A DNA stretch of 64,000 nt from a virus (IMGVR_UViG_3300042564_002819:266025-330024); one strand, 5' to 3'; counted from the first letter of the stretch, positions 30,549 through 64,000 are shown. Notes: generated by a model from the letters alone, not told the origin. A program made the numbers and translations.

Positions 30549-30610
30549 AAATAACACTTGATCTCTTACTTTGCATAGTGTAAGCTGTAAGTATAGTAAA
30601 GGAGAATCAA

Positions 30611-40300: not shown

Positions 40301-40389
40301 TATCTGTTCTAGTAGGATATGACAAGTATTTGTTTGGCATAAAACCATATATCGAACTTAAAGGCGTTGTATACCAACCTACTACTTGA
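37330..40389 (+). CDS. multidomain protein: Alt-like ADP-ribosyltransferase candidate, about 8 KOW-like repeats, C-terminal sigma70 region 1.1-like domain
   Basis: ART R-S-E candidates YLYRGIK / TFTSGSY / SEHEVMITG; repeats GDxVxVxxGxxKGKxG (e.g. GDEVNVTDGYYKGKTGKI, GDSVKVINGKHKGKTGKI); C-terminus ELKKLISQGKEKGFITYNQLNDVVPSDKVTSEEIEDIMDMLNELGINLVD versus E. coli RpoD QLKLLVTRGKEQGYLTYAEVNDHLPEDIVDSDQIEDIIQMINDMGIQVME. Confidence 0.55.
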   Translation: MRLRNLFEVQVQPGERRGFSLRLKRLEDLQVKIAEIQNTISELGNVSVPENLKKQMEDLIDAAKIEKEKIYAEVSDAEVKNPRIQGIPGSVMKLLRGIEKNASTIMNAYRKTGKYLYRGIKSSEDALYGKPFDIRKAKDSNVDLSNALNQSLADQGFNARRDNTTFTSGSYNQASNYGTVYIIFPRDGFSFHYSKKIRDLVLDTGKIDMLLDPEITGYIESAIRSNWSNLKNYFSYKFSGDKFFTGYEYQKDLDGLQRAVADGVLPQEFAKYKTFYDLVDPAKVIANFQYNQTDLDSAITSEHEVMITGPYYAVKTESFQDYIDKYIKMTANGEFDVTPDNKKEKTTLNQKIQSIVGGSAPEFAIGDWVQHKYEGFKGEVVDYYHTNDFVQIKDYAGKLKLVNKKNIDKIKTPEMPDYQPGDKVYLRTKDTEWEYYNNKKYKVVDSDKFTVTVQKGSYDTTITLPKLLTEPAPKFDTKDPSVGDTVHVTKGDFENMYGTITYVSSYSKDIDVDFGDSDSHTVQKGSYEVIDPATKPADANSIASKFKEGDYVRISDDGFDYSGLVAVINKPGLSKSRVYPFGEKSYALSIKNSRLKAIDEDEFKKQSFSITDQVVVSGGKHDGKSGKLNYVSFDGTMEIVVSSGNTIEVPGKYVFNQNVNGSPENNENKETIKKGDFVKISDDSDLFPGSVAKVVVKNSGEKSTILVNNDNNLDYIIDTKYLTKIDENEFNNKKLSTGDEVNVTDGYYKGKTGKIKSFGTDGPVRVDITSPSTGDTFTIKVLPQYLEKINQSSDDLIDLMDLEFEPMDEPTDFKNNETKKFKVGDSVKVINGKHKGKTGKINYLYTYTKEAYVDFDGEYHDIELKDLELDKEESKTDSNFNKDELKKLISQGKEKGFITYNQLNDVVPSDKVTSEEIEDIMDMLNELGINLVDAEKDSAPSGETPQELQARINDPDTKAFLKQAFADPDVKELVSNIIKKKIITTDDIDNISVLVGYDKYLFGIKPYIELKGVVYQPTT

Positions 40390-40413
40390 CATCTTTGATA
40401 AAAAGTGTATACT
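40386..40413 (+). promoter_or_regulatory. sigma70-like promoter giving a leaderless or near-leaderless mRNA
   Basis: TTGACA-N16-TATACT; ATG 10 nt after the -10, no SD. Confidence 0.5.
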
Positions 40414-40422
40414 ACAAACACT

Positions 40423-41316
40423 ATGAATCAAAAATTACAAGATCATTTAATCGGGTCACTTGTTGGCCTTGCCGTCGGTGATGCAGTAGGCACTACTGTT
40501 GAATTTAAACCGCGTGGCTCATTTCCTAAGATTGTTGACATGATCGGCGGCGGCCCTTTTAGATTGCCAGTAGGGTATTGGACAGATGATACATCTATGG
40601 CATTGTGCCTAGCAGAAAGTCTTATAGCATATCCACTGCTTGATAAAAAAGATTTGTTAACTCGTTTTTGTAACTGGTATAAGAATGGACATAATTCTTC
40701 TACCGGTCGTTGCTTTGACATTGGTAATACAACTGTCTCTGCACTAGAAGAATTTATTCACAGTGGTCAAACGAATAACAATCCTGAAGACTTTTATGCA
40801 GGTAATGGATCTATTATGCGATTGTCTCCTGTGGCAATTGCAAATTATAAAGACTTACACAAAGCAATTAAAATTGCACGTGAACAAAGTGAAACAACTC
40901 ATGAAACTATTAAAGCAACTGCTTCTTGTGAGTTGCTTGCAGAAATTTTAGTTAGAGCATACACTGCTGAAACTAAACAGCAAGTAATGGATATTGAATG
41001 TCCGTTACATTGGCCCGAACCTGTTTGCGATATTGTTGCATCTAGCGTTGTTAAAAAAACTGAAGCAGAAATTAAGTCTTCGGGTTACGTTATTGACACA
41101 TTAGAAGCAGCCGTCTGGGCATTTTTAAATACAGACAACTTTGAGGATGCAGTTTTAATAGCAGTTAATCTTGGACACGATGCTGATACAGTCGGTGCTG
41201 TAACAGGACAAATTGCCGGAGCATACTATGGAGAAACCGGAATTCCTAAACATTGGCTAGAAAAGCTTTATAACCATGAACACATCAGAAACCTTGCAAT
41301 CAAACTTTCCGAATAA
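40423..41316 (+). CDS. ADP-ribosylglycohydrolase (DraG/ARH family)
   Basis: LIGSLVGLAVGDAVGTTVEF and GYWTDDTSMALCLAESL match the ARH di-metal site region. Confidence 0.8.
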   Translation: MNQKLQDHLIGSLVGLAVGDAVGTTVEFKPRGSFPKIVDMIGGGPFRLPVGYWTDDTSMALCLAESLIAYPLLDKKDLLTRFCNWYKNGHNSSTGRCFDIGNTTVSALEEFIHSGQTNNNPEDFYAGNGSIMRLSPVAIANYKDLHKAIKIAREQSETTHETIKATASCELLAEILVRAYTAETKQQVMDIECPLHWPEPVCDIVASSVVKKTEAEIKSSGYVIDTLEAAVWAFLNTDNFEDAVLIAVNLGHDADTVGAVTGQIAGAYYGETGIPKHWLEKLYNHEHIRNLAIKLSE

Positions 41317-41843: not shown

Positions 41844-42377
41844 ATGAGCGAACCCGTCTGCACTGTAATGGTTGGCTTGCCTGCTATGGGCAAGTCCACT
41901 CTTGTTAAAGGCATGTGGAAAGATGAAAGCACTTTCATCTACAGCACTGACGATCTTCTTGAGGCCGCTGCTAAAGAACTTGGCAGCACTTACAATGAAG
42001 TGTTTGAAACGCTAATCAAGTCAGTTACTGAGGCAGCAAACGGATCTCTCGATGTTGCCGTCAAGAACCGTCAAGACATCATCTGGGATCAAACCAACTT
42101 GGGTGCAGGCAAGCGTCGTAAAATTATTAATCGTATGCGTCAGGCAGGTTATCAAGTTCGTTGTGTTTGTATCGTTCCTCCTGAAGCAGGACACATCAGT
42201 AATCTCAAGGACTGGAAGTATCGTTTGGCTAACCGCCCTGGTAAAACTATTCCAGATGAGGTGTTGACAAACATGTATCGTTCGTTTACACTGCCTACAG
42301 TAGAGGAAGGGTTTGATATGATTACCTTCTATAACATGCACGGTGCCCTGTTGGGTGTTGACTATGGAGAAGAATAA
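41844..42377 (+). CDS. P-loop polynucleotide kinase-like (Pnk kinase domain-like)
   Basis: Walker A VGLPAMGKSTLV, 177 aa, directly upstream of the RNA ligase. Confidence 0.5.
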   Translation: MSEPVCTVMVGLPAMGKSTLVKGMWKDESTFIYSTDDLLEAAAKELGSTYNEVFETLIKSVTEAANGSLDVAVKNRQDIIWDQTNLGAGKRRKIINRMRQAGYQVRCVCIVPPEAGHISNLKDWKYRLANRPGKTIPDEVLTNMYRSFTLPTVEEGFDMITFYNMHGALLGVDYGEE

Positions 42378-43534
42378 TGCACTACCGTTTTCCTGAGATC
42401 CGTCACATTAGTGATGTGCTTCCGCACATCGAAGGTCGTGAGGAATTTGTTGTAGCAGAGCGTGAAGGCTACACTGTGATCAACTACGTGGTTGCAATGG
42501 CCGACACCTTTGACATGACTGGAGCAGATGACTTGGGCGGTGCAATCCGTCGTGAATGTCGTGGCTTGATTTTTGACCGTGATGGTAACATCATGAGCCG
42601 TCCGTTTCACAAGTTCTTCAACATCAACGAGCGTGAAGAAACTCAAGCACATCGGTTGGATCTCAGTGTTTTGTTTGACCATGTGATCATGGAAAAGATG
42701 GATGGTTCGATGATCCGTCCTATCTTAGTCGATGGACACTTGCGTCTTGCTACCAAGATGGGTGTAACTGAAGTGGCCATGCAGGCCGAAACTTGGCTAG
42801 CTGCTCAGGACCCTATGTTGAAGAAGTGGATGGCTATCATGATGGCACAGGGTATTACTCCGATCTTCGAGTGGGTAAGCCCGTTCAATCAGATTGTGTT
42901 GGCGTATGAAACCGCTGATCTTGTGCTATTGGCACTGCGTAACAACATCACTGGCGAATACCTTGATGTCGGCGATCCAAAAGACGACAAACTGTGGACT
43001 GTGGTTCCGCAGTATGGTTCAGTAGAAGGCAACCTTGGTGACTATATTGCTCGTCAGCGTGGTGCAGAAGGTCGCGAAGGTGACATCATTCGCTTTGCGG
43101 ATGGGCATATGGTCAAGGTCAAGAACGACTGGTATGTGCGTATTCACAAGACTGTGGATCGCATCGTGTTCGACCGTAACATTGTTGCTCTTATCCTCAA
43201 CGAGGAAGTGGACGACGTGTTGCCGATGTTGCCGCAGGTTCAAGCAGATCGTGTTCGTGTATTCGAGCGTCGATTCGCCGAACGGCTTCACGCTGTGGTT
43301 GAAAACTACGAACGCTACTGGAACACTGTAGTAGCATCGGGTCTTGACCGCAAGCGTTATGCTCAAGAGTGGATGCCTACTATTAAGGGCAACGATCCGT
43401 TTGCTACTAACTACGTGTTTGGTCGCTTTGCTGGTCGAGATGGTCGTCAAATGATTCTTGATCATATCGAAAAGAGCATCACTACCAACGTTCGTTGGGA
43501 TGAATGTGCAGCGTGGATGGGGATGGGTCCGTGA
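42377..43534 (+). CDS. rnlA: RNA ligase 1
   Basis: ECRGLIFDRDGN..RPFHKFFNINE..MEKMDGSMI (KxDG nucleotidyl-transferase lysine) and DGHMVKVKNDWYVRIHKT parallel T4 Rnl1 ECRGIMFEMDGE..KEDGSLV..DGSHFKIKSDWYVSLHST. Confidence 0.8.
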   Translation: MHYRFPEIRHISDVLPHIEGREEFVVAEREGYTVINYVVAMADTFDMTGADDLGGAIRRECRGLIFDRDGNIMSRPFHKFFNINEREETQAHRLDLSVLFDHVIMEKMDGSMIRPILVDGHLRLATKMGVTEVAMQAETWLAAQDPMLKKWMAIMMAQGITPIFEWVSPFNQIVLAYETADLVLLALRNNITGEYLDVGDPKDDKLWTVVPQYGSVEGNLGDYIARQRGAEGREGDIIRFADGHMVKVKNDWYVRIHKTVDRIVFDRNIVALILNEEVDDVLPMLPQVQADRVRVFERRFAERLHAVVENYERYWNTVVASGLDRKRYAQEWMPTIKGNDPFATNYVFGRFAGRDGRQMILDHIEKSITTNVRWDECAAWMGMGP

Positions 43535-48890: not shown

Positions 48891-49967
48891 ATGAAATATG
48901 ACGCTCTAGTCTTTATCGGCCGGTTCCAGCCGTTTCACAATGGACACAAGGCAATTGTTGATGCCGCCCTTGAACGAGCAAAAGAAGTAATCATTGTAGT
49001 TGGTTCTAGCTTTTCTTCAAGGAATATCCGAAATCCTTTTACATTTGATGAACGCAGACAGATGATTAAAGCTGTGTTCCCGCAGGAGAACGTTAAAGTC
49101 GTTCCTGTTAGCGATTACCCGTATGATGATAATAAATGGGTTCATGCTGTGCAAAACGTAGTTCGCGGTGCGATGCGTTGGAGTGCTGATCCGATTCGAG
49201 TTGGCCTTATCGGCCATGAAAAGGACGGATCTAGCTACTACTTGAAAATCTTCAAGCCGCTAGGTTGGGGTAACGTTAGCGTAAACAACGTCGACGGCGT
49301 TAATGCAACAGACATTCGCAATATGTTGTTTGCATCTGCTCCGGATAGTTCAACTATTCTTCCAACTATTGTCCATAAAATTTATGAACAATTTGTTCAT
49401 AAAACTATGAATAAACAGGCAGTAGAAACTATGCACTCACTGATTATAAAAGATGGAGTTGTATCACCATGGTTTGAAACGCTGTTCCAAGAATACCAAA
49501 TGATCAAGAAGTACAAGGAAGCATGGAAAGCTGCTCCATTCCCTCCTACTTTCATGACTGTTGATGCTGTTGTTGTTCAAAGCGGACACATCCTTCTTGT
49601 GAAACGTGGCGACATGCCTGGTAAAGGTCTTTGGGCTTTGCCCGGTGGGTTCCTTAATCAAGGTGAAACAATGCTTGACGGTGCCATTCGTGAACTCAAA
49701 GAAGAAACTAAAATCAAAGTTGCTGTGCCTGTACTAAAGGGTTCTATTAAAGCGTTTAACACTTTTGATGCACCTAACCGCAGCCAGCGTGGACGTACTA
49801 TTACACAGGCGTTCTACATTGACCTTGGCTTTGCAGAAGAACTTCCTAAAGTAAAAGGCAGCGACGATGCAGAAAAAGCGTTTTGGGTTCCGTTTCACAA
49901 AGTGAAACAAGAACTTATGTTCGAAGATCACTTTCATATTATCGACCATTTTGTTAACATTGGGTAA
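48891..49967 (+). CDS. natV: bifunctional NMN adenylyltransferase / Nudix hydrolase (NatV-like)
   Basis: N-terminal cytidylyltransferase FIGRFQPFHNGH; C-terminal Nudix box GGFLNQGETMLDGAIRELKEETKI. Confidence 0.75.
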   Translation: MKYDALVFIGRFQPFHNGHKAIVDAALERAKEVIIVVGSSFSSRNIRNPFTFDERRQMIKAVFPQENVKVVPVSDYPYDDNKWVHAVQNVVRGAMRWSADPIRVGLIGHEKDGSSYYLKIFKPLGWGNVSVNNVDGVNATDIRNMLFASAPDSSTILPTIVHKIYEQFVHKTMNKQAVETMHSLIIKDGVVSPWFETLFQEYQMIKKYKEAWKAAPFPPTFMTVDAVVVQSGHILLVKRGDMPGKGLWALPGGFLNQGETMLDGAIRELKEETKIKVAVPVLKGSIKAFNTFDAPNRSQRGRTITQAFYIDLGFAEELPKVKGSDDAEKAFWVPFHKVKQELMFEDHFHIIDHFVNIG

Positions 49968-49971
49968 AACT

Positions 49972-50265
49972 ATGAGAATTATTGAACCTGGTAAAGTCGG
50001 CAAAACGTGGACCATTAAACACCGTTGCACCGGTTGGGGGAATAGCGACAATGGTTGCGAAGCACTTCTTGAACTGGAATTCGACGATCTTAGATTTTAC
50101 GAAGGTCAAGAATTTCCTTGGCGAGTTAGCGAACCTGCTGTATGTTTTAAGTGTCCGTGCTGCGGAAAAATTACTGACCTTGGGCTAAATGATTGGCCCA
50201 CAGGTTACCGAAATCTTGAACGGTGGTCTAGTGAATGGTGTGATGCCAGACCTGACGCTGCTTAA
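49972..50265 (+). CDS. small zinc-ribbon-like protein
   Basis: CTGWGNSDNGC ... CFKCPCCGK. Confidence 0.35.
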   Translation: MRIIEPGKVGKTWTIKHRCTGWGNSDNGCEALLELEFDDLRFYEGQEFPWRVSEPAVCFKCPCCGKITDLGLNDWPTGYRNLERWSSEWCDARPDAA

Positions 50266-50317
50266 GAAAAAGTCCAACTCAGAGAGAGTTGGCATTAACG
50301 TTTAGAGGAGTTCTAAA

Positions 50318-51772
50318 ATGACAAACGTACTAAATCTACTAACTGCTATTATTCGCACTGACAGCTATAAGCTGAGCCAGTGGCTACAATATCCAAAGGA
50401 CACTGTCCGTATTAGTTCATACATCGAAAGTCGTGGTGGCGAAGACGAATCGGTATTCTTTGGTCTACAAGCGTTCATTAAACAGTATATGATGACACCG
50501 ATTACTGTAGCAGATATCAATCGTGCTGAACTTATTGTAAAAGCACACGGACTGCCTTTCAACAGAGAAGGTTGGGAAATCATCGTCAAAGAATACGGCG
50601 GCATTCTGCCGTTGGAAATCGAAGCTGTTCCTGAAGGTACCGTTATGGAGACCCATAACGTGCAAGTGCAGATTGTTAATACCGATCCACGCTTGTTCTG
50701 GTTGACCTCATATGTTGAAACTGCAATGCTTCGCGGCATTTGGTATCCTTCAACTGTTGCTACAAAGAGCCGTAAAATGAAGAAACTCATTGCTGCTGCT
50801 CTTGAACTAACTAGCGACGTTCCTGTTAACGATCAAATCATGTTCAAGCTACACGACTTTGGTGCTCGTGGTGCAAGTTCTTCTGAAACTGCAATGCTTG
50901 GTGGTATGGGTCACCTTGTTAACTTTATGGGTACTGACACTGTGGAAGCACTTGTTGGTGCAATGGAATATTACAACACAGACTCTGTACCTGGGTTTAG
51001 TATTCCTGCTAGTGAACACTCAACAATCACTAGCTGGGGTGGTCCTGCTGGAGAAGTTGTAGCATTTGAAAACATGATCAATACATTTGCCGGTCCCGGT
51101 AAACTGTATGCTTGTGTTAGCGACAGCTACGACATTTACTCTGCCGCACGTGACTTGTGGGGCGGCGTTCTAAAAGAAAAAGTCATTGCTGCCGGCGGCA
51201 CCTTGGTGGTACGTCCGGACTCAGGTGATCCTACTACAGTTCCGATTGAAGTTATTGGCATCCTTATGGATCGCTTTGGATACACTGTTAACAGCAAAGG
51301 CTACCGAGTACTTCCTCCTTACATCCGTCTAATCCAAGGAGATGGTATCAACGAAAAAACTTTGCCTAAGATCTTGTCAAACATGGTTGAAGCAGGTTAC
51401 AGCATTGATAACATTGCATTTGGTATGGGCGGTGGCTTGCTACAAGCGTGGAACCGTGATACACTCAAGTATGCTATGAAAGCTAGTGCTAGACAGGATA
51501 CTGAGGGTGTATGGCACGATGTCTTTAAAGATCCGATCTCAGACCGCGGCAAAGTGTCTAAAAAAGGTCGTCTTGGATTAGTTTATGAGTGCGGGATTGG
51601 AAACTGCGGTTATAGAACTCTTCCAAAGTCGGTTGCTGACAAAAAAGGCAACCTACTGAGAACTGTATATCGCAACGGTGAACTCTTAATTGAGGACACT
51701 TTTGAAAATATTCGCAATCGTGCAAAACTTAAAGTGGAGGAATACACTCATGATGTCGTTGAAAGATATTGA
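50318..51772 (+). CDS. nadV: nicotinamide phosphoribosyltransferase (NadV-like)
   Basis: 484 aa; type II PRTase features (FGARGASS, GMGGGLLQ); adjacent to natV as in KVP40-type phages. Confidence 0.75.
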   Translation: MTNVLNLLTAIIRTDSYKLSQWLQYPKDTVRISSYIESRGGEDESVFFGLQAFIKQYMMTPITVADINRAELIVKAHGLPFNREGWEIIVKEYGGILPLEIEAVPEGTVMETHNVQVQIVNTDPRLFWLTSYVETAMLRGIWYPSTVATKSRKMKKLIAAALELTSDVPVNDQIMFKLHDFGARGASSSETAMLGGMGHLVNFMGTDTVEALVGAMEYYNTDSVPGFSIPASEHSTITSWGGPAGEVVAFENMINTFAGPGKLYACVSDSYDIYSAARDLWGGVLKEKVIAAGGTLVVRPDSGDPTTVPIEVIGILMDRFGYTVNSKGYRVLPPYIRLIQGDGINEKTLPKILSNMVEAGYSIDNIAFGMGGGLLQAWNRDTLKYAMKASARQDTEGVWHDVFKDPISDRGKVSKKGRLGLVYECGIGNCGYRTLPKSVADKKGNLLRTVYRNGELLIEDTFENIRNRAKLKVEEYTHDVVERY

Positions 51773-55920: not shown

Positions 55921-55957
55921 AAAACCCTCCAAGCAAGAAGCTTAGGAGGGTTTTTTA
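55921..55957 (+). terminator. rho-independent terminator
   Basis: AAAACCCTCC-N13-GGAGGGTTTTTT. Confidence 0.65.
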
Positions 55958-56103
55958 ATATGAACACGAAAGTTTTAAGAGACTATAAGGCACTACTAAA
56001 AGACTACAACGAAGGCAAAATTAGTTACAAAGAATTTGTTGATCAAACACTTCCGCTGTGGAATAAATTAAACAACTTGTTCGAAAAAGATTAAAAAAGC
56101 AGT

Positions 56104-56131
56104 TGACATAGAGTAAAACATACACTATATT
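56104..56131 (+). promoter_or_regulatory. sigma70-like promoter of the tRNA operon
   Basis: TTGACA-N16-TATATT. Confidence 0.55.
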
Positions 56132-56149
56132 AACTAAACAAACAAAAAA

Positions 56150-56188
56150 TAAAACGTAACGCAAGTTACACGCTCTTTGACAATTTAG
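56150..56188 (+). promoter_or_regulatory. boxB-hairpin plus boxA-like antitermination motif
   Basis: GTAAC-GCAA-GTTAC hairpin then CGCTCTTTGACAATTTAG (E. coli rrn boxA is GCTCTTTAACAATTTA). Confidence 0.5.
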
Positions 56189-56677
56189 ATTTGTTGTTTA
56201 CATCGTAAGATGTAGTAAACAACGCTCACTTAGACGCAAGTCGATAATAGTGGGGGTAAGTAGAGAATGACTCTACTTACACGTATTAACTGGTAGCTGG
56301 TTCGATTCCGGCGTAGAGTCTAGGTGACTATGAAAGGTTTGATTCCTTTGTACTACTGGTGTAGCAAATTGGACGACAGTCCGCCAAGTTAGTACGTGTA
56401 AGTAGAGTCGAGCAATTGAATTATTCGATGCTGTGAAGTATTTCTAACAGCATTTGATGATTGTGCCATGTGGTAAAAAGATTGCTTACAGCTAGAAAAA
56501 AGCTGACTACAATAATACACGGTAATAGAAAAGACCAAATCTTTTTTAACATCGTGTATTTATAGAAAAAACTAGTGCAGGAGGATAACTCTGTAAGTCA
56601 CAAGAACAACGGTGCCGCATGACTCAATTGCGGTTAAATTACCCGAGTAGTGCCGGGCAGAGCCAAACACACAATGT
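56189..56677 (+). ncRNA. about 490-nt structured leader/ncRNA preceding the tRNA array
   Basis: no ORF; direct repeat GTAAGTAGAG x2; tRNA-like mini-helix GACTCTAC..GCTGG-TTCGATT-CCGGC-GTAGAGTC. Confidence 0.35.
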
Positions 56678-56753
56678 TCCTCGTTAGCTCAGTTGGTAGA
56701 GTATTTGACTGTTAATCAAAGTGTCGCTGGTTCGAGCCCAGCACGAGGAGCCA
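56678..56753 (+). tRNA. tRNA-Asn(GTT)
   Basis: perfect acceptor TCCTCGT/ACGAGGA; loop CTGTTAA. Confidence 0.8.
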
Positions 56754-56822
56754 AAATTGAGAAGGGGATAAACACGGCAGTCTCATTGCGTAGCAACGGT
56801 GCCCTTTCTTTTAGAATAATGC

Positions 56823-56898
56823 ATCGGTATAGCTCAGCTGGTAGAGCAGCGGTCTCCAAAACCGCGTGTCCTGGGTTCGAATCCTAGTGCCGGTGCCA
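56823..56898 (+). tRNA. tRNA-Trp(CCA)
   Basis: GGTCTCCAAAACC anticodon arm as in E. coli Trp. Confidence 0.75.
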
Positions 56899-56905
56899 AA
56901 AATAC

Positions 56906-56997
56906 GGATTGATGGGTGAGAGGCTTAAACCAGCAGATTGCTAATCTGTCGTACCTTGTAAAGGGTACCGAGGGTTCGAATCCCTCTCGATCCGCCA
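56906..56997 (+). tRNA. tRNA-Ser(GCT)
   Basis: class II; loop TTGCTAA; variable arm CGTACCTTGTAAAGGGTACCG. Confidence 0.75.
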
Positions 56998-57008
56998 GAA
57001 TAAGATAC

Positions 57009-57083
57009 GGGCTGTTGGTATAGTTGGGAACACAGTAGCTTTGCAAGCTTCAATCACCGGTTCGAACCCGGTACGGTCCACCA
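57009..57083 (+). tRNA. tRNA-Ala(TGC)
   Basis: anticodon arm GTAGC-TTTGCAA-GCTTC (one mismatch); T arm ACCGG-TTCGAAC-CCGGT. Confidence 0.6.
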
Positions 57084-57090
57084 AAATAAT

Positions 57091-57112
57091 GCGGGATTAA
57101 CTCAGTGGTAGA
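57091..57112 (+). pseudogene. duplicated 5' fragment of tRNA-Val (acceptor plus D arm)
   Basis: GCGGGATTAACTCAGTGGTAGA versus GCGGAATTAGCTCAGTGGTAGA at 57547. Confidence 0.5.
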
Positions 57113-57142
57113 TAAATACTTTAAATAGGAGATACTCTACCA

Positions 57143-57556
57143 ATGGCTAAAACGTTCAACTGTTTAAATTGTAGTAAAGAAAGTAAATGGAGTTATAGCA
57201 GCACTAACAAGTATTGCAGCGGCGATTGCTTTCAAGAACACAAATGGAAAACTGTAAAAAAACTTGAAGTAGAAGCAGGGTTAGTCAATGACGGAAGCCC
57301 TGCGTTAAAAAAATACCTTGTTGAAACAAAAGGTGAATGCTGTGAAGAGTGCAAAGTTGGCACTGTTTACAACGGAAAGCCATTAACACTAACTGTTGAT
57401 CATATTGATGGTAATAGTGATAATAACTTTCCAGGCAACCTTAGACTTTTATGTCCTAATTGTCACAGTCAAACTGAAACATACAAAGGACGAAACAAAA
57501 AGAATAGTGCTCGTTCTCGATATATGAGAAAGTATAGAGATAATTTGCGGAATTAG
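57143..57556 (+). CDS. HNH homing endonuclease with N-terminal zinc finger
   Basis: CLNCSK..CSGDC finger; HNH core DHIDGNSDNNFPGNLRLLCPNCH; stop codon lies inside the tRNA-Val 5' end. Confidence 0.7.
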   Translation: MAKTFNCLNCSKESKWSYSSTNKYCSGDCFQEHKWKTVKKLEVEAGLVNDGSPALKKYLVETKGECCEECKVGTVYNGKPLTLTVDHIDGNSDNNFPGNLRLLCPNCHSQTETYKGRNKKNSARSRYMRKYRDNLRN

Positions 57557-57621
57557 CTCAGTGGTAGAGCAGGGGTTTTACACACCTCAGGCCGGGAGTT
57601 CGACCCTCTCATTCCGCACCA
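57547..57621 (+). tRNA. tRNA-Val(TAC)
   Basis: perfect acceptor GCGGAAT/ATTCCGC; loop TTTACAC. Confidence 0.75.
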
Positions 57622-57732
57622 AGTTTAGACTGGATATAATCACCCCTTGTGAGGGTGGCCCAAGGACTCAGTAACGAGATACAGCGAAGGGTTGTTGGTC
57701 AAGGCTGCAAACAGCCCAGTCTAAAGCAATAC
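57622..57732 (+). ncRNA. about 110-nt structured spacer RNA
   Basis: closing helix TTTAGACTGG/CCAGTCTAAA; internal hairpins CACCC-CTTGTGA-GGGTG and GGCTG-CAAA-CAGCC. Confidence 0.3.
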
Positions 57733-57821
57733 GGACACTTGGCAGAGATGGATTATTGCACCGGTCTTGAAAACCGACGAACCGCAAGGTTCCCAGGGTT
57801 CGAATCCCTGAGTGTCCGCCA
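57733..57821 (+). tRNA. tRNA-Ser(TGA)
   Basis: class II; perfect acceptor GGACACT/AGTGTCC; loop CTTGAAA. Confidence 0.8.
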
Positions 57822-57897
57822 TAAGCACACTAGCATCAGGCTAGTCCAGACCGTAAGGTTAACGGTGACAAGCGGGGAGAGACCCGCACAAAAATAC

Positions 57898-57974
57898 GGC
57901 CTGTTAGTCGAGTGGTTTAAGATGCCTGCCTGTCACGCAGGAGATGATGGGTTCAATTCCCATACAGGTCGCCA
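57898..57974 (+). tRNA. tRNA-Asp(GTC)
   Basis: anticodon arm CCTGCCTGTCACGCAGG identical to E. coli tRNA-Asp. Confidence 0.8.
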
Positions 57975-58126
57975 AATTGAAAGGAAGGCTCATAGTTTAC
58001 GTTTAGCCCGTTACGACGGTTTGGGCGGAAAATGGTTGAGTCACGGCACGGGCGGGTCGGGGGCTGCGTGACGGCATTGAACTATGAAGCAGTTGTCGGT
58101 CTGCGTTAACAAACACCGTCAAAATT

Positions 58127-58200
58127 GCGGGTATGGTGTAGCGGTAACATGCGAGCCTTCCAAGCTCTTGTCACGAGTTCGAATCTCGTTACCCGCTCCA
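58127..58200 (+). tRNA. tRNA-Gly(TCC)
   Basis: GCCTTCCAAGCT arm as in E. coli Gly2; perfect acceptor GCGGGTA/TACCCGC. Confidence 0.75.
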
Positions 58201-58225
58201 ATTTATCCGTATGTGAGAGGACAAT

Positions 58226-58492
58226 ATGAAAACAGAAGATGAAAAGAGAGAATTTTACGAGCGTTGCTCCTCTATGTTAGGAATAGCTCACGTTTACAAC
58301 ACGCCAGTTCCACGACGCAATAGATGGAACGCAAGACGACTGGGCAACGGACGTTATCCAGGATTTGGACTAATACAGTGCTACGGAAACGGAGCAAGAG
58401 TAGTTAGTCGACAAGGAACACGTATGTTTTATACATACGAAGCAGTTTATGAATATTTGCAGATTGTGCTTGACGCAACTGCAAAAGCGTAG
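58226..58492 (+). CDS. hypothetical basic protein
   Basis: 88-aa ORF inside the tRNA array; GAGAGG RBS. Confidence 0.35.
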   Translation: MKTEDEKREFYERCSSMLGIAHVYNTPVPRRNRWNARRLGNGRYPGFGLIQCYGNGARVVSRQGTRMFYTYEAVYEYLQIVLDATAKA

Positions 58493-58507
58493 TATAAAAA
58501 CTATAAC

Positions 58508-58583
58508 GCCCTTATAGCTCAGCTGGTAGAGCATCTGATTTGTAATCAGAGGGTCGGCGGTTCAAGTCCGTCTGGGGGCACCA
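58508..58583 (+). tRNA. tRNA-Thr(TGT)
   Basis: anticodon arm TCTGA-TTTGTAA-TCAGA. Confidence 0.8.
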
Positions 58584-58590
58584 AAATTAT

Positions 58591-58666
58591 GTCGCGTTAG
58601 CAAAAGGTTAATGCGTGTCCTGTGCAAAGGACAAGGACGGTGGTTAAACTCCCCGACGCGACTCCA
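58591..58666 (+). tRNA. tRNA-Cys(GCA)
   Basis: perfect acceptor GTCGCGT/ACGCGAC; arm GTCCT-GTGCAAA-AGGAC. Confidence 0.7.
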
Positions 58667-58672
58667 AATAAT

Positions 58673-58754
58673 GCGGATGTGGTGTAATGGTAGCCACGCT
58701 GGTCTTAGAAGCCAGTGCGTAAGCGTGAGAGTTCGAGTCTCTCCATCCGCACCA
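58673..58754 (+). tRNA. tRNA-Leu(TAG)
   Basis: class II; loop CTTAGAA; paralogous to the Leu(GAG) at 30791. Confidence 0.75.
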
Positions 58755-58798
58755 AAATATTTCTTATCTTAAAAAGTTTTAAATTTAGAAAGATTAAC

Positions 58799-59242
58799 AT
58801 GCAATTTTATGAAAAAGTAACTTTTTTACCAAGCATTCCAGAAGGTTTAATAAAACCTTTAGATATAATCGAATCGATGCCGAATGTTTTTCCAGATCCG
58901 GATTACGCTCATACTTATGCCAGCTATAAGGCAAATGACGATTTACAAGCTTGGGCACAAAGTTATTTTGACTTTCCTGTACTTGCAAGATATCAGGTAA
59001 TTAAACAACAATTGCCTATTCATGTTGACGTTGGAATTGTAGGAATAAAATATAACTACCTTATTAGCAGGGGTGGTGACGATGTAAAAACAAGATGGTG
59101 GGATAGTGTAGAAAATCCTTCAAAAATACTTTTTGAAACTACTTCGCCATTACGTGTGTGGCACAGCTTAAACATCGAAGTGCCACACGATATAACAGAA
59201 ATTAGTTATCCTAGAATTAGTGTAACTATAAGAAAAAAATAG
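58799..59242 (+). CDS. hypothetical protein
   Basis: ORF from the first ATG after tRNA-Leu. Confidence 0.35.
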   Translation: MQFYEKVTFLPSIPEGLIKPLDIIESMPNVFPDPDYAHTYASYKANDDLQAWAQSYFDFPVLARYQVIKQQLPIHVDVGIVGIKYNYLISRGGDDVKTRWWDSVENPSKILFETTSPLRVWHSLNIEVPHDITEISYPRISVTIRKK

Positions 59243-59270
59243 TAATAACTTTTTTAAAGAAAAATACTGT

Positions 59271-59346
59271 TGGGAAGTAGCTCAATTGGTAGAGTAGCGG
59301 ACTTTGAATCCGTTGGTTGGTGGTTCGAATCCACCCTTCCCAGCCA
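59271..59346 (+). tRNA. tRNA-Gln(TTG)
   Basis: U1-A72 start TGGGAAG/CTTCCCA as in bacterial Gln; loop CTTTGAA. Confidence 0.75.
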
Positions 59347-59352
59347 AGATAT

Positions 59353-59429
59353 CGGAGTATAGCACAGCCTGGTAGTGCGATGGTTTTGGGTACCATAGGT
59401 CGAGGGTTCGAATCCTTCTACTCCGACCA
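59353..59429 (+). tRNA. tRNA-Pro(TGG)
   Basis: C1-G72 acceptor CGGAGTA/TACTCCG; D arm GCACAGCCTGGTAGTGC; loop TTTGGGT. Confidence 0.75.
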
Positions 59430-59646
59430 CGATTAAACTGTTGATCTAACCTCGGACTCGAACAAATAGCCATAGGCTTAGGCAGGTAGTACGGCGGATT
59501 AGTGTTAGACAACATTCGGACCAAGTAATCCGTGAGGTCCAGCTATTAGTGATGGCGGGGACGAACAAGCGGCTGATTTGGTATCAGTCGTGAGGCGGTA
59601 AGCTGCACCATAGGTGTCGTAGGCCGGGACTTGTTCAATTTATTAT
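59430..59646 (+). ncRNA. about 215-nt structured spacer within the tRNA array
   Basis: no ORF; GC-rich paired segments (GGCGGATTAGTG..CCAAGTAATCCGTG). Confidence 0.25.
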
Positions 59647-59724
59647 CTGGGTATAGCTCAGTCTGTGAAGAGTGCTCGCCTTGGAAGCGAGAGGTCGCTG
59701 GTTCAAATCCAGTTACCCAGACCA
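59647..59724 (+). tRNA. tRNA-Pro-like(TGG), second copy
   Basis: C1-G72 acceptor CTGGGTA/TACCCAG; arm CTCGC-CTTGGAA-GCGAG. Confidence 0.6.
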
Positions 59725-59731
59725 AAATAAC

Positions 59732-59816
59732 GCGGTGTTGGACAAGATGGATTGTCAGAGGATTCTAAACCTTAGTAGGCAGGATCGTTACCTGTACGCC
59801 GCACCAATACACACAT
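59732..59816 (+). tRNA. non-canonical tRNA-like (possible pseudogene or suppressor)
   Basis: acceptor GCGGTGT/ACGCCGC and CCA present, but T loop ATCGTTA and anticodon arm irregular (loop region ATTCTAAA, could present TCT or CTA). Confidence 0.3.
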
Positions 59817-59919
59817 ATGATGCCGTAGCCCGACGCTGGTATGTGTGAAACCTAAATATCGGGCATGTAATTTAATAAAGGAAAGAAAAATGTCGTAGAT
59901 TGAATATGCTTGTAAAGAT

Positions 59920-60456
59920 GTGGTGTTCCACTTTAACAAAAAACACTTGGAAGATGAAACTATTCCGATGTGGGTGATTAAGTTTCGAGGCGAAACCTAT
60001 TATGTAAATCATGTCGAATGTAGTGTTCCGTGGAGTACAAAAGAAACGCCTGATAACAATCACACTAAAGGCAGTATCAAAGTCAAGGATTGTTTAGTTA
60101 TTATTGATGATGAGAACTGTGCTAACATTCGTGTGTTAACTCCAGCAGATCGTTTGCGTCTTACTAAAGAACAAACTGTAAGAGTTATTACCGAGCAAGG
60201 AGCAAAACTGCGTACTGCACTACAGAACATGGCACATGGTCCGATTAAGTTAGCAGGTGGAGGATGTGGCACTACTTGGTATATCACAGATATTCCCAGT
60301 AAGAAACATTTAACAATACTACAACTACAGATTCCTTATATTAGGCAATTGATGCCCAATGAGGATTATTACAAGAAATATGATCAAACATCTTCAGATA
60401 CTGAATGGTTAGATGATGATGACGACTACGAGTGGGAAGACCTTTATGAAAATTGA
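59920..60456 (+). CDS. hypothetical protein
   Basis: 178-aa ORF with acidic C-terminus. Confidence 0.4.
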   Translation: MVFHFNKKHLEDETIPMWVIKFRGETYYVNHVECSVPWSTKETPDNNHTKGSIKVKDCLVIIDDENCANIRVLTPADRLRLTKEQTVRVITEQGAKLRTALQNMAHGPIKLAGGGCGTTWYITDIPSKKHLTILQLQIPYIRQLMPNEDYYKKYDQTSSDTEWLDDDDDYEWEDLYEN

Positions 60457-60625
60457 AGTGCCTCACTCGTTACTAAAAGAAGTCTGTGCTACAATTCGTC
60501 AATTCAAATTAAGGCACGGGCCATTCTACAAACTGTTAAATAGCTATAGGATATATTTGTATCCAAGTAGTAAATTAAGTTTGTTTTTGATTAAACATTC
60601 TAGCACTGTTACAGTGCTAGAATAA
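60413..60625 (+). CDS. hypothetical small protein (doubtful)
   Basis: 70-aa overlapping ORF. Confidence 0.2.
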   Translation: MMMTTTSGKTFMKIEVPHSLLKEVCATIRQFKLRHGPFYKLLNSYRIYLYPSSKLSLFLIKHSSTVTVLE

Positions 60626-60626
60626 T

Positions 60627-60701
60627 GCGGGCGTAGCTCAGGGGTAGAGCGTCACCTTGCCAAGGTGAATGTCGTGGGTTCGAATCCCATCGCCCGCTCC
60701 A
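60627..60701 (+). tRNA. tRNA-Gly(GCC)
   Basis: perfect acceptor GCGGGCG/CGCCCGC; arm TCACC-TTGCCAA-GGTGA. Confidence 0.8.
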
Positions 60702-60719
60702 ATTGTTGAAAGATATTGT

Positions 60720-61301
60720 ATGAGTAAAATAGAGCACTTTTATCATCTTCCGCACTTCGAAGAAGAATGGTTTACATATTCGGCTTTATATTCTGATATG
60801 GTAGCTAAATTTCCATCCGGAAGTAAGTTTGTTGAAGTCGGTTGTTGGAAGGGAAGATCTGCTGCTTATATGTGTGTAGAAATTGCTAATTCAAAAAAAG
60901 ACATTGATTTTTATTGTGTTGACTTTTGGCATGTATCAGCAGAGCATGAAATAGAAGAACCCCATCTAAAAAATTTGTATGAAATTTTTCTTTCTAATAT
61001 GAAACCAGTTGAAGCTTTTTATAAGCCAATGAAAATACCGTCGTCTGATGCTGCAAAAAAATTTAAAGACGAAAGTTTAGATTTTGTTTTTATTGATGCT
61101 GGACATCAATACGATGAAGTAAAAGATGATATTCTTGCATGGTATCCAAAAATTAAAAAAGGTGGCATACTAGCAGGACATGATTTTTATCCAACTGAGC
61201 CAACTTGGGGAGATGTTTCTAAAGTAGTAAACGAACTTTTTCCAAATAATTATGAAGTTTTAATAGAACAAAGTTGCTTTCTAGTAAATAAGCCGGTATA
61301 G
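60720..61301 (+). CDS. class I SAM-dependent methyltransferase-like
   Basis: KFVEVGCWKGRSAAYM (motif I-like) and FVFIDAGHQYDEV (motif IV-like). Confidence 0.5.
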   Translation: MSKIEHFYHLPHFEEEWFTYSALYSDMVAKFPSGSKFVEVGCWKGRSAAYMCVEIANSKKDIDFYCVDFWHVSAEHEIEEPHLKNLYEIFLSNMKPVEAFYKPMKIPSSDAAKKFKDESLDFVFIDAGHQYDEVKDDILAWYPKIKKGGILAGHDFYPTEPTWGDVSKVVNELFPNNYEVLIEQSCFLVNKPV

Positions 61302-61365
61302 CTGAGTGGTTTAGCAGCTGATTAGTAATCAGCTGACGGGAGTTCGATTCTCTCTACCGGCACCA
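61292..61365 (+). tRNA. tRNA-Thr-like, anticodon reads AGT (A34)
   Basis: acceptor GCCGGTA/TACCGGC (Thr-like); perfect anticodon stem GCTGA/TCAGC with loop TTAGTAA. Confidence 0.6.
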
Positions 61366-61400
61366 AATCTAAATTTTTTATTAATTAATAGGTATCCAAG

Positions 61401-62156
61401 TTGAAAATAGTCGACGAAAGAAAAGATCCAAATTTTGGAACAGTAATGAATTTTGAACATATTAGTTTGCCTCCTCAAGGGTATAACGGTAAACTGTTTT
61501 TAGATTTTTCTAAGTATGCTAATTTTGATTTTGAAAAAATGGATACAGAAATATGTTTAGCATTATCAAAAATTGATTTAAATAAATATCCTATTGTTTC
61601 GGGGGTTATGCCTCCAAAATTAAAATACGGAATATTTGAAAATGAAGTAATGTACAACTTTACTGGAGATAGAGAAAATTTAAAAAATCTTTCTCCAATG
61701 GAGATGCGTAAATTTTTGTTTTTTAAACACAAAACTCTTTTACCTTGGTTCTTTGTTGTAGACTTAAAACCGAGTCTCTTTTTTGAAAGATCGGAAGATA
61801 AACATCCGTGGAGCGAAGTTAGTAAACTTACTCCATATACAAGACAGTGCATTGAGAGTCTTCCTTTCAAATCAATAGGCAGAGTAGTTATATATGGATC
61901 TTGGCCACAAGCTGAAGTACCATGCCACAGAGATTGGATACCCGACGGTGTTTTCCATCATCATATAAATCTTAATCCTGGTGGATACAGACCAGTCTAC
62001 ATTTATGATCCTGAAACAGATACAAAGAATTATTTACCGGAAAGCTATAAGTTGTATGCTTATCAAACAACCGATTACCACGGCGTAGATGCTCTTACGC
62101 ATTTTAGTTATACAATACGCATAGACGGAATTTATAATGACGACGTAGAATTGTAA
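61401..62156 (+). CDS. hypothetical protein (possible His-rich metal-binding/oxygenase fold)
   Basis: 251 aa; PCHRDW...HHHINL cluster. Confidence 0.3.
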   Translation: MKIVDERKDPNFGTVMNFEHISLPPQGYNGKLFLDFSKYANFDFEKMDTEICLALSKIDLNKYPIVSGVMPPKLKYGIFENEVMYNFTGDRENLKNLSPMEMRKFLFFKHKTLLPWFFVVDLKPSLFFERSEDKHPWSEVSKLTPYTRQCIESLPFKSIGRVVIYGSWPQAEVPCHRDWIPDGVFHHHINLNPGGYRPVYIYDPETDTKNYLPESYKLYAYQTTDYHGVDALTHFSYTIRIDGIYNDDVEL

Positions 62157-62230
62157 TTTACAAATTTGAAAACGTTAAAAAACGATAATATAAATACTGT
62201 AAATTATTAACAAATAGTGAAATATATAAA

Positions 62231-62992
62231 ATGAATTATCACATAAAAAACTTTATTATCCCTATACATGTCTTATTTTTAGTATCACTAATTGGTATGT
62301 ATTTAAATATAATCGATTTTCATATTTGGTTATTTTTAATAGGGTGGACTTTGATCTATGGGCTAGGTCTTGTTGTAGGATTTCATAAATTGTTATCCCA
62401 TAGCTCTTTTAAAACAAACAAATACATATCTTATGTGTTAGCTTACTTAGGATGCTTAGGAATTAGCGGATCACCTATATGGTGGGCTGCTATACATAGA
62501 GGACATCATCATGCTCATACTGAGACTGAAAAAGACCTTCAAAGTCCACGTCGTGGATGGCTTACATCTTACATAGGTTGGCAGTTTGGTGAAGAAACAA
62601 GTAAAATAAGTTTAAAGTATGCATCTGATTTAATAAAAGATCCTTTTTATCTTTTTTTACACAAGAATTATAGATTAGTTGTTTGGAGTACAGTGATTAT
62701 TGTTGGTATGTTGTCACCATCTGTTGCAGTTTCATTATTAATATTTCCGATGATTGCAGCACACCATGGAGAAAATATTACCAATTCATTTGGTCATAGC
62801 AGGTTTGCTGGTTACAGAAATTTTAATACCAACGACGACACTATAAATAACCCATTGTTAGCATTTATAACTTGGGGTCAGCTTTTGCATAACAATCATC
62901 ATGCTAAGCCAAATAACGATAGTTTTGCCATTAAATGGTTTGAATTTGATCCAACTTCTCCTTTTGTATGGATTTTAAAAAAACTAAAATAG
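62231..62992 (+). CDS. membrane fatty-acid desaturase (acyl-lipid/acyl-CoA Delta9-type)
   Basis: three His boxes HKLLSH, HRGHHHAH, HNNHHAKP and four TM segments. Confidence 0.7.
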   Translation: MNYHIKNFIIPIHVLFLVSLIGMYLNIIDFHIWLFLIGWTLIYGLGLVVGFHKLLSHSSFKTNKYISYVLAYLGCLGISGSPIWWAAIHRGHHHAHTETEKDLQSPRRGWLTSYIGWQFGEETSKISLKYASDLIKDPFYLFLHKNYRLVVWSTVIIVGMLSPSVAVSLLIFPMIAAHHGENITNSFGHSRFAGYRNFNTNDDTINNPLLAFITWGQLLHNNHHAKPNNDSFAIKWFEFDPTSPFVWILKKLK

Positions 62993-63049
62993 TTACAATA
63001 TAAACATTTTTCTGTAACAGAAAAAAAATAAAAAAGTTGAAAAAAGTGG

Positions 63050-63079
63050 TTGACCTTTGAGGCAACATGCACTATATTA
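63050..63079 (+). promoter_or_regulatory. sigma70-like promoter
   Basis: TTGACC-N18-TATATT; shares CACTATATTAAC with the promoter at 56104. Confidence 0.5.
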
Positions 63080-63083
63080 ACTA

Positions 63084-63127
63084 CATAAGCAGCAAATGTG
63101 TTGCTTACACGCTCTTTGAAAATTTAG
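63084..63127 (+). promoter_or_regulatory. boxB-like hairpin plus boxA-like motif
   Basis: AAGCAGCA-AATG-TGTTGCTT hairpin then CGCTCTTTGAAAATTTAG. Confidence 0.5.
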
Positions 63128-64000
63128 TAACTTAACTGCAATAATCAACAGTTTAGCGAAAGGCTAAAGATTGTGGTTGTGCTGAGTAATTAACAGTTTA
63201 AATCAGCAAGTGATGCGTGATTAGGTAAACTGTTGTTTATTGCAGTTTTTAAGATGGGCGGCTTAGCGTCCACGTAAGGGTAAGTGCGGTAACGCACCCA
63301 AAGGCAGGTTTCCTATAAACTGCCGCCAGCAATGGTCCACCTAAGCAAGCCTGAACTAAGGTTGACTCGGTTTAACCCGAAAGCAACCTCCGTCCTTAGG
63401 CGGGCGGTAGGCAGTAAGTTAGAGTTGTAGTCCGAAAGGATAGGCACAGAGCCGGTCGGTGAGTGCTAAGAGGCTGTGGTGGCTGAACTGCAACATACCA
63501 AACTAACGAATGCTGAAGGTTAACAGGTAGCTACACTGTCTGAGCCCGCAAGCAAAGGCATGGTAGCATCACAAGAGTGGAAGGGTTAGGCCCCGGATAC
63601 TTGAAGTGACGTTGAGTAGCTCGCAAGGCAAAAGACAGTCGGTGTGTTGTATACTGTATCTAACAAGGTATGGTGCAACTGGGACAGCACATCGAAGTAG
63701 GTTCGCAATATTGCATAACGGTAATGCAATCGTCTTATGAAACGATGGATTGTAGGTTCAACTCCTACTATTGAAACAAAAGCGAAAGACTGTCCCGGTA
63801 CGTTGTGAAAGGTGGTTAATGCCACACTCGCAAGAGAATGTGGTCTACGGATGCTCGCAAGGCTGATGTAGTTGTTCGGAAAGATAGCGTAAGGGTTTAG
63901 CGACTCTGAACTGCTCGCAAGGCAGACGAAGGATAGAAGGACGAGTAGCAACGTGCGACGAGAGAAACGCCACTCTCCAAAAAAGGCACCACTGGGAGAT
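63128..64000 (+). ncRNA. large structured ncRNA (partial, runs off window end)
   Basis: more than 870 nt with no credible ORF; many GNRA/GAAA-type loops (CCGAAAGG, CCCGAAAGCAACC, CGCAAG); 10-mer CTCGCAAGGC repeated 3 times plus CCCGCAAGCA. Confidence 0.5.

Follow-up and report, generated by a model that had tools for sequence, protein, structure and literature searches.

rRNA-type boxA leaders before a tRNA array and a GOLLD RNA in a phage genome

Why would a virus carry a leader signal of bacterial ribosomal RNA (rRNA) operons in front of its own tRNA genes? The question is raised by a stretch of viral DNA of 64,000 nucleotides (nt), IMGVR_UViG_3300042564_002819:266025-330024, which as a whole is called the window here and from whose first letter all positions are counted. 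Two predicted promoters in it are each followed by a short hairpin and then by a motif with the spelling of boxA, and they stand at the start of two RNA units, a tRNA array with a long structured leader (unit 1) and a GOLLD RNA (unit 2). In rRNA (rrn) operons the promoter is followed by boxB, boxA and boxC in that order, and boxA is necessary and sufficient for assembly of the NusA/B/E/G-SuhB-S4 complex; the resulting antitermination complex is resistant to Rho, elongates faster, and holds the leader tethered at the RNA exit channel, which favours long-range folding (PMC10250234). We think it probable that the phage modules recruit a host elongation complex of this kind.

Two promoters followed by a hairpin and boxA

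The elements of the two copies, and those that adjoin them, are as follows.

55925..55956, + strand: intrinsic terminator, CCCTCC...GGAGGG then TTTTTT, read from the sequence, the palindrome being found by scan as well
56083..56102, + strand: A-rich, UP-element-like tract 5' of promoter 1, 13 A per 20 nt
56103..56131, + strand: promoter 1 (predicted), TTGACA-N17-TATATT, 11 of 12 consensus positions
56156..56169, + strand: hairpin 1, GTAAC-GCAA-GTTAC with a GNRA loop, ending 1 nt before the CGCTC 18-mer (E = -4.8, z = -11)
56171..56188, + strand: boxA copy 1, CGCTCTTTGACAATTTAG
56192..56221, + strand: second hairpin, directly 3' of boxA copy 1, GTTGTTTAC...GTAAACAAC with a GUAA loop
63050..63078, + strand: promoter 2 (predicted), TTGACC-N17-TATATT
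63086..63107, + strand: hairpin 2, 9 base pairs, ending 2 nt before the CGCTC 18-mer (E = -9.8, z = -3.9)
63110..63127, + strand: boxA copy 2, CGCTCTTTGAAAATTTAG

A preliminary description of this DNA had reported two promoters with shared -10 regions; both are found, with coordinates that differ by one base from those given there. It had also placed a hairpin and then a near-copy of the rrn boxA about 40 nt downstream, and this holds well, the distance from the end of the -10 hexamer to boxA being 39 nt in copy 1 and 31 nt in copy 2, with hairpins that end 1-2 nt before the 18-mer. Hairpin 1 thus occupies the boxB-like position of the rrn order. The motif that follows each hairpin is ACACGCTCTTTGA(C/A)AATTTAG, or in the RNA form of the full 19 nt ACGCUCUUUGA(C/A)AAUUUAG. 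Random recurrence of the 18-mer, which the same description had named as a possible objection, is not seen: a scan of both strands of the 64 kb with up to three mismatches gives only these two matches, with 0.09 expected.

The likeness to boxA is exact. The 18-mer occurs without mismatch 66-232 nt 5' of the start of 16S rRNA in 7 bacterial genomes (in a scan with one genome per species), namely four Planctomycetota (Pirellulales and relatives), two Rhodobacteraceae and one unclassified, and CGCTCTTTGAAAATTTAG is the exact spelling in the Rhodobacteraceae rrn leaders L064 and L088. These leaders account for 7 of the 77 matches in bacterial genomes, about 35 being expected by chance; the matches outside rrn fit chance plus one conserved Campylobacter locus. 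Compared with GYTCTTTAANA, the experimentally derived boxA consensus (PMC5725501), which is gamma-proteobacterial, GCTCTTTGACA and GCTCTTTGAAA agree at 10 of 11 positions each, the exception being a G at position 8. Judged by its sequence, the window motif is a bona fide rrn-leader boxA spelling. The idea that this spelling might reveal the host has to be abandoned, since it is common to the rrn leaders of Planctomycetota and Rhodobacteraceae and a spelling shared by several phyla does not identify a host.

It is worth adding that the Campylobacter locus is found in about 35 metagenome-assembled genomes (MAGs) of that genus (among L026-L101, for example L027, L028 and L030), where the exact 18-mer (…ttgaaattccCGCTCTTTGAAAATTTAGcccaaaagcgcc…) lies outside rrn; a further target of boxA in cells may lie here, for instance a CRISPR leader or a regulated gene. 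Within the window a third boxA candidate, GCACTTTAAAAA at 22563, before the first of its two tRNA clusters, was rejected: it breaks a position that is invariant among the viral sites described below, and has neither promoter nor hairpin context.

The two copies have in common the -35 hexamer, the extended -10 region (ACAT(A/G)CACTATATTAACTA around the hexamer) and a 21-nt block around boxA; they differ in both halves of the promoter spacer, in the hairpins and in all downstream sequence. This mosaic argues for constraint on separate functional elements, and not for a recent duplication. Across the relatives of promoter 1 (alignment A2) GTTGACA is without variation, and a promoter almost identical to promoter 2 precedes GOLLD in loci L018 and L130. 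The terminator at 55925..55956 ends the preceding unit, so that promoter 1 is isolated. Directly 5' of promoter 2 there is again an A-rich tract (12 A per 20 nt), and the three most A-rich upstream tracts among 23 promoter-like sites of the window are those before promoter 1, before promoter 2 and at 22305. The hairpin and boxA are carried by only 2 of the 23 consensus-like promoters, both of them 5' of RNA genes; many of the remaining ones have a ribosome-binding site and ATG downstream. Neither promoter 1 nor promoter 2 has the GC-rich discriminator typical of stringently controlled rrn P1 promoters.

Near-consensus promoters with A-rich upstream tracts imply a very high output. Such output would suit a decoy, in which phage boxA RNA titrates NusB/NusE/SuhB, leaving less for the rrn operons of the host or for Nus autoregulation, and thereby lowers host ribosome synthesis; genomes with at least two modules are common, and regulatory roles of boxA beyond antitermination are known, as at suhB (PMC5725501). 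However, the module does not stand alone but sits specifically before long RNA genes, and phages need the ribosomes of the host; the phages that are rich in tRNAs appear to raise translation and not to damp it. We regard a decoy as very improbable.

The units that lie behind the two copies of boxA contain the following features.

56189..56677, + strand: structured untranslated leader of 489 nt (minimum free energy -172 kcal/mol, z = -7.0 against shuffled controls)
56678..61365, + strand: 16 tRNA genes (ARAGORN and Rfam) interspersed with open reading frames (ORFs)
57143-57556, + strand: HNH endonuclease ORF, inside the tRNA array
60720-61301, + strand: methyltransferase ORF, inside the tRNA array
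61401..62992, + strand: two tail ORFs of unit 1, for a hypothetical protein of 251 amino acids (aa) and a fatty-acid desaturase (62231-62992)
63128..63638, + strand: variable 5' domain of GOLLD, about 510 nt, with 70-87% identity to the regions directly 5' of the GOLLD core in L018, L025, L011, L017, L015 and L002
63639..64000, + strand: conserved 3' domain of GOLLD, the RF02032 match, cut by the end of the window
63704..63777, + strand: tRNA-like element in the GOLLD linker (ARAGORN, 4-nt anticodon, tatg)

GOLLD is among the largest and most elaborate RNAs of bacteria and phages, and its structure by cryo-electron microscopy is a 14-mer cage. The RNA of unit 2 matches this family (RF02032) with 136 bits (E = 1.2e-36) over model positions 1-336 of 416, the match ending at the window edge, and this truncation is the sole reason why the score stays under the cut-off of 150. 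Locus L102, which has 0 mismatches to the window over the 215 nt compared, scores 150.7 bits for model positions 63-416, and the GOLLD genes of relatives score 175-196 bits. The preliminary description had seen here a GNRA-rich non-coding RNA of more than 870 nt. A long RNA is indeed present, with at least 890 nt of the GOLLD unit inside the window, but it is not an anonymous one. An embedded tRNA is a known feature of GOLLD (PMC12286853), and in the window GOLLD has a phage context with a tRNA array on its 5' side. As judged from L102, GOLLD reaches its 3' end past the window edge; behind it come a hairpin and three tRNAs, a canonical intrinsic terminator closes the unit, and a further promoter with an ORF is next. 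Window and L102 together give a unit of about 1.9 kb that consists of promoter, hairpin, boxA, GOLLD, tRNAs and terminator, with no ORF. A leader-trailer helix around GOLLD is unsupported, the minimum free energy folds of five units giving inconsistent long-range pairs that involve boxA.

Unit 1 begins with a leader that was correctly described as structured and of roughly 490 nt. It is conserved in L031, L007, L025, L011 and L018, and neither the leader nor the spacers of the array have an Rfam match at E <= 1. The tRNA array had been counted as 27 genes; ARAGORN and Rfam give 16, plus the one tRNA-like element in the second RNA (the whole window has 30-31 tRNAs by these two tools). Nor can both units be called non-coding, as had been proposed, since unit 1 has 8 ORFs, four of them being hypothetical ORFs within the array in addition to those listed above. 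Between 56131 and 63050 a scan found no other consensus promoter and no convincing terminator on the + strand.

Within the leader the elements GTAAGTAGAG (56258), CTCTACTTAC (56274) and GTAAGTAGAG (56398) are invariant in six relatives. They permit either a local hairpin or a long perfect helix, the latter resembling a substrate of RNase III and enclosing a variable insert with T-arm-like hairpins (GGTTCGATTCC).

The perfect long helix of CTCTACTTACACGT with ACGTGTAAGTAGAG brings up a different explanation of the leaders, namely that hairpin and 19-mer form a processing or stability signal (an entry site for RNase E or RNase III, or a protective 5' stem-loop) and that the likeness to boxA is coincidental or secondary. 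Both units would be polycistronic precursors in need of heavy processing, with 16 tRNAs in one and GOLLD in the other, and hairpins close to the 5' end are classic stabilisers of mRNA. Such a signal would nevertheless leave base-for-base mimicry of boxA unexplained: the invariant positions are those of the Nus-binding consensus, rrn leaders from several phyla contain the 18-mer without a mismatch, and a second spelling used by other phages tracks the gamma-proteobacterial boxA. A processing signal alone is therefore distinctly improbable.

The module in other viral loci

The exact 19-mer is present in 25 IMG/VR contigs, none of which contains rRNA. In 19 of these it is followed by tRNA arrays on the same strand, and tRNAs on the opposite strand are found in none; the six contigs that have no tRNAs offer at most 1.3 kb of sequence downstream. 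When the IMG/VR loci are taken together with the window copies and with two contigs mis-binned into MAGs, 29 modules are obtained, 21 of which have a TTGAC-type -35 and a TAnnnT -10 separated by N16-18, at 19-48 nt 5' of boxA. A hairpin ends 0-2 nt before CGCTC in 22 of 27 unique modules, with stem sequences that are unrelated to one another. More generally, a hairpin adjoins the boxA core in 41 of 63 sites, compared with 20% of random windows, and again the stems differ among sites. Comparable hairpins 3' of boxA are found in many relatives. All these locus counts, and those below, include many related phages and do not represent independent events.

The two mis-binned contigs are L031 (JBIKJV010000260.1, from a 'Phycisphaerales' MAG of Lake Mendota) and L096 (from an 'Emticicia' MAG), both short, with promoter-hairpin-boxA modules, tRNAs and the start of GOLLD, and with 92-94% identity to the window leader. 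Both are almost certainly of phage origin and came into the bacterial MAGs by binning, which could point weakly to co-abundance with the host. Among GenBank phages the window has no close relatives, the matches being of tRNA size only.

Since the first set of loci was found by way of boxA, a second set was assembled blind to it, consisting of 44 viral GOLLD loci identified by the GOLLD core pattern. A boxA-like site, defined as up to two mismatches to the 12-nt core, lies 600-1400 nt 5' of the GOLLD marker in 28 of the 36 eligible loci, against 0.17 expected per locus, which places it immediately ahead of the 5' domain. The full anatomy of promoter, hairpin and boxA is seen in about 20 of the 28. 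Strict matches number 17 on the GOLLD strand and 1 on the opposite strand, over 424 kb. In 13 sites linked to a promoter, G1, T3-T7, A9 and A11 are invariant, and the flanks carry almost no information.

Cultured phages also have the module. In the roseophages DSS3_MAL1 and MD18, GGAACC-tc-GGTTCC is followed by AC and by GCTCTTTGACAATT, about 120 nt before a run of tRNAs that leads into GOLLD and then a permuted transfer-messenger RNA (tmRNA); GCTCTTTGACAATT differs by one or two bases from Rhodobacteraceae rrn leaders. The Stenotrophomonas jumbo phage CM1 has TTGACA-N17-TAGAAT and then GTTCTTTAACAA within its tRNA/GOLLD region. The GOLLD genes of DSS3_MAL1 (L103, MN602268, 6025-6962) and MD18 (L104, MT270409, 6036-7129) score 160-170 bits. 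They are unannotated in the GenBank records, where only the inner tRNA-Arg is marked; the permuted tmRNA, which is of the alpha-proteobacterial type and lies directly 3' of GOLLD, is annotated in MAL1 and unannotated in MD18.

A module that recurs in this way might be an inert promoter cassette, copied among related phages or captured from a host rrn operon, in which boxA has no present function. Many of the loci do belong to clearly related phages, and promoters 1 and 2 have their extended -10 region in common. An inert cassette should hardly show mosaic conservation, however, in which -35, -10 and boxA are kept and the spacer, hairpin sequence and downstream RNA diverge. It also fits poorly with the occurrence of the module in phages as distant as the roseophages and the Stenotrophomonas jumbo phage and in two boxA spellings, and the strand bias of 17:1 argues for selection on the RNA. 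We give this explanation very little credence.

The second spelling, TGCTCTTTAACAATTTA, is gamma-proteobacterial and is found 6-13 nt 5' of phage tRNA arrays in L142, L167 and L187, with the full promoter-hairpin anatomy in two of these three viral contigs. Most other IMG/VR matches of TGCTCTTTAACAATTTA resemble prophage nut sites. Among the loci L143-L213, which are matches of this spelling, there are many prophage contigs from isolate genomes in which a full-consensus boxA is followed by a hairpin (for example …TGCTCTTTAACAATTTAgaaagtcggaacagcacagatttttctgtt); presumably these are nut-type sites of non-lambda temperate phages, in several recurrent families.

This brings in the possibility that the window sites too are lambda-nut-like, so that an N-like or other phage protein acts with host Nus factors and readthrough is controlled by the phage, and is not constitutive. 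Prophage contigs, as just described, often have a hairpin behind a consensus boxA; the boxA of unit 1 is flanked by hairpins on both sides (56156-56169 and 56192-56221), and hairpins after boxA are common in its relatives. The phage also encodes a 1019-aa protein with NusG/Spt5-type KOW repeats and a sigma-70 region 1.1. On the other hand, the hairpin whose position is conserved is the one 5' of boxA, in the rrn order, and its stem and loop vary freely, unlike those of a boxB read by N. In rrn operons a boxA of full consensus needs no N (PMC10250234). Among those window ORFs that were annotated there is no N-like protein, and nothing observed ties the KOW protein to the boxA sites. A nut-like site seems unlikely.

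Host Nus factors and the phage RNA units

The reading that we prefer is that the module recruits the host's Nus-factor elongation complex, of the rrn type, to long untranslated phage RNA units, and we put its probability at roughly 0.7. The elements themselves, their order and conservation, their association with strand and promoter, their link to RNA genes and the identity with rrn boxA are all observed directly; the binding of Nus factors and its outcome in antitermination and chaperoning we infer from them. The strong early promoter would be read by host RNA polymerase with sigma-70. Some 25-35 nt into the transcript, a consensus-type boxA preceded by a hairpin, as boxA is by boxB in rrn, would be bound as RNA by host NusB-NusE(S10), and together with NusA, NusG and SuhB/S4 this would convert the polymerase to an antitermination complex of the rrn type. 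The converted complex would be resistant to Rho and quicker, with its 5' leader tethered at the exit channel in a way that aids co-transcriptional folding. The phage would deploy it on its long untranslated and highly structured RNA units, unit 1 and unit 2. The rrn-type antitermination proposed in the preliminary description therefore stands as regards the leader anatomy, for which the evidence is comparative; antitermination itself is a probable function, and the use of boxA by phages is not new.

Several observations weigh against this reading. Unit 1 has no strong internal intrinsic terminator. The + strand is rich in G relative to C (GC skew about +0.12) and is poor material for loading of Rho, so that the need for protection from Rho may be modest; with G-rich transcripts and no strong intrinsic terminators, speed and co-transcriptional chaperoning may be as important as resistance to termination. 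The first tRNA cluster of the window (22728-30874), with 13 tRNAs, has no boxA leader. The consensus promoter nearest to it, at 22305, has a short ORF behind it and then a terminator (22497-22527), and the two tRNA clusters of this one phage would thus be expressed under different regimes. Among the environmental GOLLD loci, 8 of 36 have no boxA-like site, and GOLLD is present with no recognisable boxA in Vibrio phage D69 and Sinorhizobium phage Phosso, which rules out that boxA is universal at GOLLD. The relatedness of many of the loci, stated above, belongs here as well. Position 8 of the core is G where the gamma-proteobacterial consensus has A, although the matching rrn leaders also have G. 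Finally, neither leader contains an element like the enterobacterial boxC, TGTGTGGG; boxC has been defined in Enterobacteriaceae, with no clear role (PMC10250234), so that its absence carries little weight.

Compared with rrn leaders, the phage module places promoter, hairpin and boxA in the same order, with boxA inside roughly the first 20-50 nt that are transcribed. It also shares the boxA core (with the exact 18-mer in Planctomycetota and Rhodobacteraceae), and its product is likewise long, untranslated, highly structured and inclusive of tRNAs. It differs in that it is encoded by a phage and drives tRNA arrays, small ORFs and GOLLD in place of 16S and 23S rRNA, and in having no boxC, no consistent leader-trailer helix and no GC-rich discriminator.

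In function, the nearest known parallel is the boxA of CRISPR arrays (Stringer et al. 2020, eLife, PMC7665894). It too has the consensus sequence and sits downstream of the promoter, ahead of a long, repetitive, untranslated array that it shields from premature termination by Rho, and it has been recruited independently in many lineages (PMC7665894). The phage module differs from it in serving tRNAs and GOLLD and not crRNA, in lying in a viral genome, in having a conserved hairpin that adjoins boxA, and in being known here from sequence alone. Lambdoid nut sites also combine a phage boxA with host Nus factors for processive antitermination, as we propose here. In nut, however, boxA comes before boxB, N is required, the boxA of lambda is off-consensus, and the targets are protein-coding early operons of temperate phages, whereas the window module has the rrn order, a full-consensus boxA and RNA genes as targets, in a large phage with rIIA/rIIB. 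The boxA in the 5' untranslated region of suhB (Baniulyte et al. 2017, PMC5725501) is a further functional case outside rrn; at suhB, though, the Nus complex acts as a repressor of translation and thereby favours termination of an mRNA by Rho, and the phage boxA has no start codon after it.

As for GOLLD, the RNA of the window agrees with RF02032 in its conserved 3' domain, variable 5' domain, embedded tRNA-like element and phage context beside tRNA islands. Descriptions in the literature examined cover the 14-mer nanocage, expression at lysis and the genomic context, and contain no leader of promoter, hairpin and boxA. In that literature no report connects boxA or Nus factors with GOLLD or with phage tRNA clusters; an earlier mention in Weinberg 2009, Harris & Breaker 2018 or Morgado 2020 is possible. 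The use of boxA by phages is itself already known, from the lambdoid nut sites, and the novelty appears to lie in an arrangement of the rrn type, seemingly independent of N, on tRNA arrays and GOLLD.

A bolder version of the preferred reading can be formulated, which we consider unlikely. GOLLD and the tRNA precursors would come from an rrn-like 'RNA factory', in which the boxA-tethered Nus complex, with S10 and S4, is required if the GOLLD 14-mer nanocage is to fold correctly during transcription and to assemble, and perhaps stays on the leader, the very abundant phage boxA RNA also draining Nus factors from the host rRNA operons. If true, this could explain the reported association of GOLLD with ribosomes, and boxA would be a functional link between GOLLD biology and the host machinery of ribosome synthesis, going beyond insurance against Rho.

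Neighbouring genes and wider meaning

The tRNA array of unit 1 has some irregularities. In the region 57084-57621 a 5' tRNA fragment at about 57090-57112 (GCGGGATTAACTCAGTGGTAGA) is followed by the HNH ORF and then by an intact tRNA-Val (57547-57621), the start of which has nearly the same sequence as the fragment; this looks like the footprint of insertion of a homing endonuclease into a tRNA gene. HNH genes are present too in the tRNA/GOLLD islands of Vibrio phage D69. ARAGORN gives a 2-nt anticodon for the tRNA-like gene at 58591-58666, and an unannotated cloverleaf-like sequence with a CACCA end lies at 59731-59805. The array spacers 57622-57732 and 57822-57897 have folds more stable than those of shuffled sequences (z about -3).

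The 1019-aa protein mentioned above is encoded at 37330-40389 (+ strand). It has several KOW repeats of the NusG/Spt5 type (Pfam KOW at residues 823-842, E = 1.4e-13), followed by the sigma-70 region 1.1 at residues 881-941 (E = 2e-20), and an N-terminal domain that is phrog_11975. About 20 homologous metagenome clusters carry the automatic names 'NusG' or 'L24'. An R-S-E motif of ADP-ribosyltransferases, seen by eye in the N-terminus, was unconfirmed by a sequence search of the PDB and is set aside. The next gene, directly downstream (40405-41316), encodes an ADP-ribosylglycohydrolase. The phage may use the 1019-aa protein to act on the transcription machinery.

Genes of auxiliary metabolism or counter-defence are found at 1166-2299, 9927-11966, 13036-14214, 32626-35594, 42377-43534 and 48891-51772. 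The gene content includes IMPDH/GMP reductase, a CHASE2-adenylate cyclase, ornithine/DAP decarboxylase, rIIA/rIIB, an RNA ligase of the T4 Rnl1 type, and NMNAT-Nudix and NAMPT for NAD salvage, and all ORFs of the window are on the + strand. This content points to a large T4-like or jumbo phage with genes of auxiliary metabolism and counter-defence.

For the biology of these phages, the finding means that a consensus promoter, a hairpin and a boxA of the rRNA type open the majority of the phage GOLLD genes examined and numerous phage tRNA arrays. It is a first concrete and testable clue to the biogenesis of GOLLD, which would be made, as rRNA is, by a polymerase modified by host Nus factors. 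Cultured systems can be named for it: DSS3_MAL1 and MD18 on Ruegeria/Phaeobacter, and the Stenotrophomonas phage CM1. The module also provides a rule for annotation, in that it marks the start of a phage RNA operon, GOLLD being unannotated in the GenBank records examined. The reach of boxA, which had included rRNA, lambdoid early operons, suhB and CRISPR arrays, would widen to the non-coding RNA units of lytic and jumbo phages, and the arrangement suggests possible design rules for the expression of large structured RNAs in vivo.

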